Shown: positions 31,988 through 34,378 of the stretch, one piece after another
Position numbering within the stretch: the stretch's first letter is position 1
How the letters are laid out: every line of letters begins with the position of its first letter
Notes under the pieces: generated by a model
The model's input: the letters and a program-made list of their open reading frames with translations, nothing else
Database searches by the model: none
Told to the model about the DNA's origin: nothing
Source: an uncultured Rhizobium sp.
GTDB lineage: Bacteria > Pseudomonadota > Alphaproteobacteria > Rickettsiales > UBA1997
NCBI GenBank assembly: GCA_964447395.1
Contig: CAYUSO010000001.1
Span: 73,003-137,002 of the forward strand
Reading direction: 5' to 3'
DNA: 64,000 nucleotides
Program-made: the position numbers and the translations under genes

Positions 31988-34378
31988 ATGAAATTCACCC
32001 TCTCCTCACTCAAAGAGCATCTCGAAACTTCTGCATCACTCGAGGAGATTTGCGCGAAACTCACCAGCATTGGTTTGGAAGTTGAATCACTTGATGATAA
32101 AGCAAAAATTCTCGCCCCATTTTCCGTCGCAAAAATCATCGAAGCCAAACCGCATGAAAATTCTACCAAACTAAAAATCTGCACAGTTGAAGTTCCAAAT
32201 TCACCAACGCCGCTGCAAATTATTTGCGGCGCGAGCAATGCCAGAAGCGGCTTGAAAGTGGCTTACGCACCAATCGGCTCAACAATTCCTGCCAATGGAA
32301 TGGTGATAAAAAAAGCCAAAATCGCCGGAGTTGAAAGCAATGGCATGTTGTGTTCGGCGCGCGAACTCGGCATTGGAAATGAAGATGCTGGAATCATCGA
32401 AATCGCAGAAAAATGGCCAGTCGGCACCAAAATCACCGAAGTTTTTTCGCTCAGCGATGCAGTAATTGAAATCAACGTCACACCAAATCGCGGCGATTGT
32501 TTGGGAGTTTACGGAATTGCGCGCGACCTTGCAGCATCTGGCATTGGCGAATTGAAAAAATTGCAAATCAAAAAAATTCCAGCGCAATTTTCTTTTTCAA
32601 TTGAAGTAAAAAATGAAGCGCCAGAAATCTGCCCTTACGCCGCTTTCCGCTATTTAAAAAATGTTAAAAATTGTGAATCGCCAAAATGGCTGAAAGAGAA
32701 ATTGCAAGCTGTTGGAATCAATTCAATTTCTGCAATTGTTGATGTGACGAATTACGTCATGCATGTTTTGAATCGTCCGATGCATGCTTACGACGCCAAT
32801 AAAATCAAATCTCCGCTGCAAATTCGCTTTGCAAAAAAAGATGAAAAATTCACTTCGCTAAAAAACGAAGAATTTATTTTGGATGAAAAAATTTTAGTAA
32901 TTTCAGATTCAGAAAAAAGCCTTGGAATTGCTGGCGTTATTGGCTCGGCAAATTCTTCCTGCGATTTGGAATCAACAGAAATTTTACTCGAAGCCGCATT
33001 TTTTAAACCATCATCAGTCGCATATTCTGGTCGCCAATTAAACATTTTATCCGATGCCAGACACCGCTTCGAACGCGGCGTTGACGAGTCTAGTTGCGAA
33101 CAAGGAATTGATTTGGCAACGCAATTAATTCTCGAAATTTGTGGCGGCGAAGTAAGCGAAATAAAATTCGTCGGACAAAAATCAGCACCGAAAAAAATCA
33201 CCTTCGATAGTTCAAAAATTAAAAAACTAACTGGTGTTGAAGTCGCGGAGGAGAAGGTTTGGGAGATTTTGTCGAGTTTAGGGTTTAAAGTCGTAAGTCG
33301 TAAGTCGTTAGTCGTAAGTGAGGTTGATATCCCATCGCATCGCCACGATATTTTTGCTTCGGAAGATTTGGTCGAAGAAGTAATCCGCATTTTTGGCTAT
33401 GATAAAATCCCTTCACAGCCACTTACGACTTACGACTCACAACTTACGACTAACATCAGCAACCACCTAACCGATTGCCGCTCCCACCTCGCCTCTCTTG
33501 GCCTTACCGAAATAATTTCTTGGTCATTTGTTGATTCAAAGCTTGTCGAAATTTTTGGCGAAAAAAATGAAAAATTAATTTTGGCTAATCCGATTTCTTC
33601 GGAAATGGATCACATGCGCCCTACTCTGGCAATTGGTTTGATCGAATCTTACAAAAAAAATTCGCTGCGAAATTTTTCTAATCTTTCACTTTTTGAAATT
33701 GGAAATGTTTTTGTGGAAGACGCGCAGAAGCTAATGATTTCAGGCCTTCGCGCCGGAAAAAATAAAGAGCAAAATCACTATCATGATGAAAGAGATTTTG
33801 ATGTTTTTGATGTGAAAAAAGATTTTTTTGAAGTGGTAGAAAATTTTGGCTTACGCTTTGAAAGCTTGCAACTCAACACTTCAGACGCGCCAAAATATTA
33901 CCACCCTCACCGCTCTTGCTCTCTAAAATTAGGAAAAAATTTGGTTGGATTTTTTGGCGAAATTCATCCGGCGATTACAAAAAAATTTGATTTAAAAACT
34001 CGCATAAATCTTTTTGAAATTTTTGTCGACTCTCTTCCAAACTCACAAAAATCAAGCTCGCGCAAGGCTTTTGCCAAAGCTTTTGTGATTAATGATTTAC
34101 CAATTGTCGAACGCGATTTTGCATTTTTAGCTGACAAAAATTTAGCCGTTAGCGACTTAATAAAAACCGTCACAAATGCTGAAAAAAATCTCATCAAAGA
34201 AGTAAATATTTTCGATATTTTTAGCGGAAAAAATATCGCCGAAGACAAAAAATCCGTAGCTCTGCGCGTAAAAATTCAGCCTCAAGAAAAAACCCTCACC
34301 TCCGAAGAAATCGATGCAATAAGCAAAAAAATTGTTGATGCTACGCAAACAGCTCACAACGTGACTCTACGCGATTAA
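31988..34378 (+). CDS. pheT: phenylalanine-tRNA ligase beta subunit
   Basis: 796 aa with a tRNA-binding N-terminal domain, [32 protein letters not shown] and a C-terminal FDX-ACB-like domain. It carries two heptamer tracts. Confidence 0.95.
   Translation: [796 protein letters not shown]
33290..33317 (-). repeat. (GTCGTAA)x4 = reverse-orientation heptamer tract, in frame inside pheT
   Basis: GTCGTAA GTCGTAA GTCGTTA GTCGTAA encodes [10 protein letters not shown]. The third unit carries the A-to-T change at 33309 that turns an in-frame TAA into TTA. Confidence 0.95.
33424..33451 (+). repeat. (TTACGAC)x4 heptamer tract, in frame inside pheT
   Basis: TTACGAC TTACGAC TCACAAC TTACGAC encodes [10 protein letters not shown]. 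It forms an inverted pair with 33290-33317, 106 nt away. Confidence 0.95.

Follow-up and report, generated by a model that had tools for sequence, protein, structure and literature searches.

Inverted heptamer arrays around the B5 core of an alphaproteobacterial pheT: probable members of a concertedly evolving repeat family edited by purifying selection

In a 64,000-nt stretch of DNA from an uncultured alphaproteobacterium (GenBank assembly GCA_964447395.1, contig CAYUSO010000001.1, positions 73,003 to 137,002; hereafter the window), the essential gene pheT, which encodes the beta subunit of phenylalanyl-tRNA synthetase, carries two short tandem arrays of a 7-nt unit in opposite orientation, GTCGTAA on the left and TTACGAC on the right, which bracket the segment encoding the conserved B5 core. 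We consider it likely that these tracts are resident members of a heptamer-array family that evolves in concert, occupies two permissive loops of the protein and is edited by purifying selection. Dispersed heptamer arrays of about 4-5 units (30-33 nt) are characteristic of this uncultured alphaproteobacterial group. The source genome is represented here by the 64 kb of the window and its relatives by 1-22 kb each, and 79 pheT loci were taken from species-representative genomes. The relatives, designated by L numbers, are uncultured freshwater or groundwater metagenome-assembled genomes (MAGs) labelled Alphaproteobacteria or Rickettsiales; L002 and L031 are the genomes recovered for the PheT homologues P0006 and P0002, and L200 and L201 those for P0077 and P0032. 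Arrays were detected with Tandem Repeats Finder (TRF) and arms with an inverted-repeat finder, and a Pfam scan took in 9 open reading frames (ORFs) of the window. Among the PheT homologues no sequence of the same species was present, the best being 79% identical.

The left tract (33290-33317) reads GTCGTAA GTCGTAA GTCGTTA GTCGTAA, and the right tract (33423-33450) TTACGAC TTACGAC TCACAAC TTACGAC. The original prediction, made from the sequence alone, had described these as four-unit tracts lying 106 nt apart, able to form a 28-bp stem with 25/28 matches and flanking the B5 motif of PheT. The arrays themselves, the count over the 28-nt tracts and the flanking position (33320-33421 aligns gapless to E. 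coli PheT, 3pco_B) were all reproduced, but the tracts are 105 nt apart. The inverted-repeat finder delimits two arms of 32 nt each (33289-33320 and 33420-33451), of which 29/32 positions (91%) are complementary, with 99 nt between them. Two deviations belong to the right arm alone (T>C at 33438, G>A at 33441), and all three arm mismatches of the window pair are uncompensated. The complementarity score of the left and right arrays (23) was reached in 0/100 shuffles, and the window has 13 matches to the 14-mer GTCGTAAGTCGTAA when as many as 2 mismatches are tolerated, where shuffled sequences predict 0.17.

Both arrays are read in frame, within length-variable loops of an intact pheT ORF that shares 65-79% identity with 120 homologues in which all Pfam domains of PheT are present, and whose product matches solved PheT chains. 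The B5 core between the arms is conserved in the alignment of all 120 homologues, and the length variation around it is located in the two loops that hold the arrays. Relative to E. coli PheT (3pco_B), the array-encoded stretches differ by only +2 residues on the left and -1 on the right, and are thus not net insertions; relative to homologues of 777 aa, the left loop is longer by 7 residues, that is, by 21 nt or three units. At this left site the loop has the same length in the window, L002 and L031 (14 aa) and is shorter in L001 (12 aa).

A comparison with pheT of close relatives, which had been proposed as a check of the original prediction, revealed that the three closest genomes (L001, L002 and L031; 78% amino acid identity), which are adjacent to the window on a neighbour-joining tree, also carry repetitive heptamer arrays of about four units in both loops. 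Their units are not the same. The left loop holds AAGTCGT in the window, a degenerate array in L002, TAGGCGT in L031 and a perfect GAAGCAC array in L001; the right loop holds TTACGAC in the window and L002, TACCGCC/TATCGCC in L031 and TACCCGC in L001. Between the window and L031 the changes run through the whole unit and are complementary in the two arms, from GTCGTAA to GGCGTTA on the left and from TTACGAC to TA[C/T]CGCC on the right. Furthermore, the right loop is occupied by an array in L015 and L017 and by a decayed one of the same length in L005 and L003, from which it follows that the right array is older than the left. The insertion of a bracketing element, as originally proposed, is therefore not borne out, since the interior is native pheT, the arrays are no net insertions and the right one came earlier; nor is an origin in one event, because the same loops of relatives hold arrays with other units and the arrays form a dispersed family.

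At four-fold degenerate sites these genomes have diverged almost to saturation (identity 0.32-0.58), whereas the units within one array are 83-100% identical, which argues that the arrays are kept homogeneous within each lineage. The same behaviour extends to other loci. The folC-like genes of the window, L002 and L031 have arrays that share position and length and differ in unit, TTACGAC versus CTGTCGA; in these three genomes the array (window 18930-19030, L002 1790-1880, L031 1630-1720) replaces about 30 residues (IFGRDWKIKKEKNGFLFEGFGKKISLPLPSL) of ten other relatives, with a net deletion of 19 residues. At the nuoA-nuoB junction, AATTAAG arms in the window stand against an AGTCGTA/TACGACT array hairpin in L002 (4089-4169) and L031 (3874-3952). 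Within single genomes the unit is shared: L017 has CTTACCA, one substitution away from CTTACGA of the window, in perfect form at two of its three sites and with 96% matches at the third; in L031 the right-loop array and a second pheT array, 800 nt further upstream, are built of one unit; and pheT of L001 contains one perfect unit twice. As orthologous arrays differ and arrays of one genome share their unit, homogenisation within and between arrays, without change of length, is indicated.

The imprint of selection lies in the reading frame. Read as codons, in whatever frame, any 7-nt unit presents each of its seven cyclic triplets once within every 21 nt; because GTCGTAA includes TAA, an array in the antisense orientation encounters one in-frame stop per 21 nt, and TTACGAC is free of stop triplets. 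Position 33290 is codon position 1, so that the left tract reads GTC GTA AGT CGT AAG TCG TTA GTC GTA AGT. It had been predicted that the consensus repeat would put a stop at 33308-33310 and that the lone deviation of this tract removes it, and the computed frame agrees on both counts: with GTCGTAA this codon would be TAA, it is actually TTA, and the deviating base abolishes the only in-frame stop of the tract. A comparable case is found in L031, where the left array is built of GGCGTTA and its single deviant unit, GGCGTCA, changes an in-frame TAG to CAG; this genome has reached the same stop-killing solution independently of the window. The left unit of L001, in turn, lacks a stop triplet, and its array is perfect. 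Taken together, TAA>TTA in the window, TAG>CAG in L031 and the stop-free, perfect array of L001 indicate that stop avoidance is recurrent and specific.

The pheT pair is one part of a larger population. The window contains four TTACGAC/GTCGTAA arrays in three genes (pheT, the folC-like gene and queC) as well as three AATTAAG loci (Table 1); the former lie inside ORFs in 4/4 cases, and the AATTAAG family is intergenic. Inverted partners of the folC-like and queC arrays were looked for and none was found. An 18-nt inverted repeat with 89% complementarity (18910-18927 and 19014-19031, 86 nt apart) brackets the folC array, an arrangement that may be due to chance. Among the tandem repeats of the close group no period is as common as 7: arrays of at least 3 copies with this period number 50 in 958 kb, whereas 414 kb of outgroup sequence contain 6. 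Whether an array is coding or intergenic, its copy number tends to lie in the narrow range of 4.3-4.9, and the intergenic arrays mostly form close inverted pairs.

Beyond this group, (TTACGAC)3 is present in more than 120 metagenomic contigs with a G+C content from 0.28 to 0.68. The arrays there have a mode of 4 units (43/134) and are mostly intergenic, in-frame coding arrays occurring in one contig only (L173). Seven contigs (L096, L115, L116, L133, L153, L172 and L193; G+C 0.36 to 0.60) contain inverted pairs, all of them intergenic and with unrelated loops, that of L153 including a terminator-like hairpin, and all seven have the polarity (GTCGTAA)n-loop-(TTACGAC)n. A phage association of the arrays was considered as well and rejected, as viral contigs yielded only 5 matches to (TTACGAC)3.

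The same two pheT loops have also been filled by another kind of repeat. In L200 (4290-4460) and L201 (1390-1560) they hold a perfect 24-27-nt inverted pair of an unrelated palindromic repeat, whose left copy encodes HPELVSGS and whose right copy encodes ILKQVQDD (complementarity score 24, 0/200 shuffles); in L012, L022 and L032 only the right loop has a copy. This repeat is a 21-nt hairpin, ATCC[C/T]GAA-N5-TTC[A/G]GGAT, with conserved flanks, which occurs in inverted doublets of REPIN-like layout and has 5 matches in the window versus 0.12 expected. Bracketing of the B5 core by an inverted pair has thus arisen at least twice, the right loop being filled first both times. Such twofold bracketing fits a gene with two permissive loops in genomes that are rich in repeats prone to form inverted doublets.

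We propose that concerted evolution of the arrays would proceed by conversion within an array, via transient slipped pairing with no net change in length, and additionally by conversion from one array of a genome to another. As for the left array, it could have originated as an inverted copy of the older right array or of a sister array, through template switching or inverted-repeat conversion. Purifying selection on the essential pheT would then purge every homogenised variant in which the stop is restored or the frame shifted, the 32-bp mRNA stem would be incidental, and the encoded peptides may represent no more than tolerated loop filler. Several points weigh against this proposal. The homogenisation mechanism is deduced from sequence patterns; an array of 30 nt is at the lower limit for homologous conversion; and in pheT, slippage intermediates that differ by a single unit would be lethal frameshifts. 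Repeated re-creation of arrays in the same loops retains some residual plausibility, and the complementary unit changes in the two arms of L031 are also expected from selection for pairing. Finally, the seven metagenomic pairs, the hairpin of L002 and L031 and the pheT pair are all (GTCGTAA)n-loop-(TTACGAC)n, and the intergenic members are mostly inverted pairs; this shared polarity hints at a pair-specific process or function for which concerted evolution with purifying selection does not account.

Pairing of the arms as such deserves attention, since the bracketing repeats could constitute a selected cis-acting structure, either a long-range mRNA stem or a DNA cruciform enclosing the B5-coding segment, that tunes pheT expression through cleavage by RNase III, stability of the transcript or pausing of ribosomes. 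Folding the RNA, as had been suggested for the original prediction, did yield a predicted stem formed by the tracts of the window, the 201-nt region having a predicted energy of -60.3 kcal/mol and a z of -4.67, and a stem is likewise predicted in L031 (z -4.36), where the arms differ from those of the window at two unit positions in a complementary manner. Either arm-to-arm conversion or selection for pairing would yield such a stem retained through complementary unit changes. The perfect inverted pair of an unrelated repeat that encloses this segment in L200 and L201 and the frequency of hairpins among intergenic family members, at operon junctions, also speak for a structural role. In contrast, the predicted stem is absent in L002 (z +0.13) and L001 (z +0.16), the sisters of L031 and of the window, respectively, and in every other relative examined, significant complementarity between left and right arms being found at only 2/52 loci and lacking at 48/52; the distribution of the stem over the window and L031, and its absence from these two sisters, make a conserved RNA function unlikely. 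Moreover, the three mismatches of the window are uncompensated, the arms of L031 have one mismatch per unit, and the folC and queC arrays have no partner. Searches against Rfam found no family in the window at gathering thresholds, and the hairpins of the metagenomic arrays gave only sub-threshold microRNA-precursor matches. We regard the mRNA stem, which is itself a prediction, as a by-product and not as a conserved regulator, and a selected cis-structure as improbable.

A separate arrival of the two arrays, by a sequence-specific process that seeds about four units at a time, would require that only two loops are permissive and that their inverted orientation is coincidental; we consider this unlikely. 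It would explain the single arrays in folC and queC, the occupation of the right loop in more lineages than the left, the right-then-left order that the palindromic repeat displays too (right only in L012, L022 and L032, both in L200 and L201) and the recurrence of an identical unit, with a mode of 4, in metagenomic contigs of widely differing G+C. An antisense array, by carrying an in-frame stop, should survive far less often than a sense one, and yet this is the orientation of the left array; at a density of 4 arrays in 64 kb, two would lie within 150 nt by chance in roughly 3% of cases by our own estimate; and the change of unit at constant length in orthologous arrays is better matched by conversion in place than by re-insertion. 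The in-frame insertion of one whole palindromic mobile element, about 160 bp long and of the RPE or MITE type, finds a precedent in the in-frame palindromic insertions known from Rickettsia (PMC10969869), and the tracts do form terminal inverted repeats. This is nevertheless refuted by the 102 nt of the interior, which are the native, universally conserved B5 core and align gapless to E. coli PheT; in addition, the window has no other copy of this interior, and family members share the arrays only, their loops being unrelated, so that we attach next to no credence to such an insertion. It is just as hard to credit an assembly or sequencing artefact or a chance similarity. The source is probably metagenome-derived and repeats are prone to mis-assembly, but arrays fill the same two loops in independent assemblies from different sites (L001, L002 and L031), the tracts leave the ORF open and in frame, and no shuffle attains the observed values.

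A bolder possibility, for which we see only a slim chance, is that the arrays of this lineage are due not to passive slippage but to an active, sequence-aware process that writes or converts arrays of about four units at unlinked sites, prefers to build them as inverted pairs with a fixed polarity and does so even where essential coding sequence is spanned. If so, the pheT pair would be a footprint of that machinery, which might perhaps operate in bacteria generally, and the series formed by the window, L001, L002, L031, L015 and L017 would offer a handle on the heptamer excess of prokaryotes. An unexplained excess of heptameric repeats in prokaryotes was reportedly noted in 2007.

With regard to known systems, the pheT pair fits the class of heptanucleotide arrays but departs from it in three respects: it lies in coding sequence, it is an inverted pair that is split, and its unit is not rich in G. 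Passages of PMC4692102 describe dispersed heptanucleotide arrays (GGGNATC) with a preference for four units in Xanthomonas and Nostoc, and cite previous studies on the STRR heptamers of cyanobacteria and on an excess of heptameric repeats in bacteria at large; passages of PMC2700814 describe 'four tandem heptanucleotide' elements of Geobacter metallireducens that lie within and between genes, one class being drawn as strand-switching pairs. With STRR-like arrays as portrayed there, our arrays share the 7-nt unit arranged head to tail (TRF period 7, with 4.6 and 4.4 copies in pheT), the presence of one unit at many dispersed loci and the preference for about four units; in these passages on cyanobacteria, Xanthomonas and Geobacter, as in our case, the arrays are noted without a mechanism or function. 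The unit found here is not G-rich, so that G-quadruplex formation, the sole rationale put forward for the four-unit preference, does not apply, and a four-unit mode in such a heptamer argues against that explanation of the preference. A mainly intergenic location would be expected of STRR-like arrays, whereas the TTACGAC arrays of the window are all in frame in housekeeping genes; since the Geobacter elements are, in the passages concerned, also found within genes, an intergenic location is not strictly defining. A further departure from known heptamer arrays is that the pheT pair is split, inverted and placed around 102 nt of conserved coding sequence. The passages of PMC4692102 and PMC2700814 that treat these repeats make no mention of orthologous lineage-specific units or of a stop-avoiding variant unit, and our literature search found no paper describing in-frame heptamer arrays in Rickettsiales-like genomes.

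Other classes are reminiscent of the pair in part. The in-frame palindromic insertions (RPE) of Rickettsia housekeeping genes, reviewed in PMC10969869, and intragenic MITEs resemble it in that repeat-derived sequence is tolerated in frame in variable surface segments of essential metabolic or translation genes, in a lineage labelled Rickettsiales (PMC10969869). An RPE of about 150 bp is inserted whole and its conserved interior encodes a peptide of its own, while in pheT repeat-derived sequence is limited to the two 30-nt arms, the interior belonging to the host gene and not being foreign. The layout of a REPIN, two inverted copies of a short repeat with a variable spacer and the capacity to form a hairpin, is shared by the intergenic array hairpins and the ATCC[C/T]GAA-N5-TTC[A/G]GGAT doublets, and the pheT pair is itself a hairpin-capable inverted doublet with a spacer. 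REPINs are inverted doublets of REP units, which are imperfect palindromes and strictly extragenic; in contrast, the heptamer arrays are tandem, not palindromic, and here they are coding. Contingency loci of phase variation also have, inside an ORF, a tandem repeat with a unit length that is not a multiple of three, so that the frame shifts whenever one unit is gained or lost; the hosts of the present arrays are essential or housekeeping genes (pheT, folC-like, queC) in which on/off switching would not be viable, and the arrays are short and interrupted.

This locus adds three points. Heptamer arrays can persist for long in frame inside essential genes; the block-wise change of units at orthologous sites, together with a shared unit within each genome, points to concerted evolution of repeats of only about 30 nt; and selection visibly edits the sole codon that homogenisation would turn into a stop. 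On the practical side, heptamer tracts pose a frameshift risk in MAG annotation and give rise there to odd low-complexity peptides.

Table 1. Array pair, host gene and further repeat loci, with positions in the window unless a relative is named
Feature	Position	Strand	Description	Basis
pheT	31988..34378	+	phenylalanyl-tRNA synthetase beta subunit, 796 aa; host gene of the pair	ORF, homologues, structures
Left array	33288..33319	+	antisense-type units, GTCGTAA x4.6, unit 3 GTCGTTA; 10-residue peptide in variable B5 loop	TRF, 92% matches
Stop-avoiding codon	33308..33310	+	TTA (Leu) in place of consensus in-frame TAA	frame from ORF start 31988
Native pheT between arms	33320..33421	+	conserved B5 core, 34 residues	gapless alignment, E. 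coli PheT 3pco_B and 7n8y_B
Right array	33421..33451	+	sense-type units, TTACGAC x4.4, unit 3 TCACAAC; 10-residue peptide in linker after B5	TRF, 83% matches
folC array	18962..18997	+	TTACGAC, 5.1 perfect units, in frame; 12-residue peptide; folC-like Mur-ligase gene 18318..19544	TRF, Pfam
queC array	60777..60807	+	TTACGAC, 4.4 units, in frame; 10-residue peptide; queC 60532..61248	TRF, Pfam
nuoA-nuoB hairpin	21268..21362	.	intergenic, at gene junction; arms of AATTAAG-type and AATTCTA-type arrays	TRF, Pfam
hisS-lepA hairpin	49103..49200	.	intergenic, between the two genes; arms of AATTAAG-type arrays	TRF, Pfam
ccmC-side array	47139..47163	.	single AATTAAG-type array, 3.6 units; overlaps stop end of ccmC-like ORF 47141..47845 (-)	TRF, Pfam
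Palindromic doublet	27270-27375		ATCC[C/T]GAA-N5-TTC[A/G]GGAT	
Palindromic doublet	31907-31976		ATCC[C/T]GAA-N5-TTC[A/G]GGAT; fills atpF-pheT spacer, ends 12 nt before pheT ATG	
Palindromic doublet	L032 11257-11331		ATCC[C/T]GAA-N5-TTC[A/G]GGAT, relative	
Palindromic doublet	L032 18301-18372		ATCC[C/T]GAA-N5-TTC[A/G]GGAT, relative	
Palindromic doublet	L062 1960-2020		ATCC[C/T]GAA-N5-TTC[A/G]GGAT, relative	

A few further features of the window were recorded along the way. Directly downstream of pheT lies an ORF of 1243 aa (34394..38125, +) that gave no Pfam match, and a similarly placed large ORF exists in relatives. Another large ORF, of 1203 aa (13585..17196, +), has a weak, sub-threshold Pfam match to a RickCE-like catalytic domain. 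An ORF of 2985 aa (51230..60187, -) contains many short tandem repeats with periods of 12-66 at about 52440-54900, as well as a degenerate heptamer array at 59644-59671. Next to the nuo cluster, on its nuoB side, 69 nt are perfectly duplicated in tandem (20605-20754; 2.2 copies, 100% matches).

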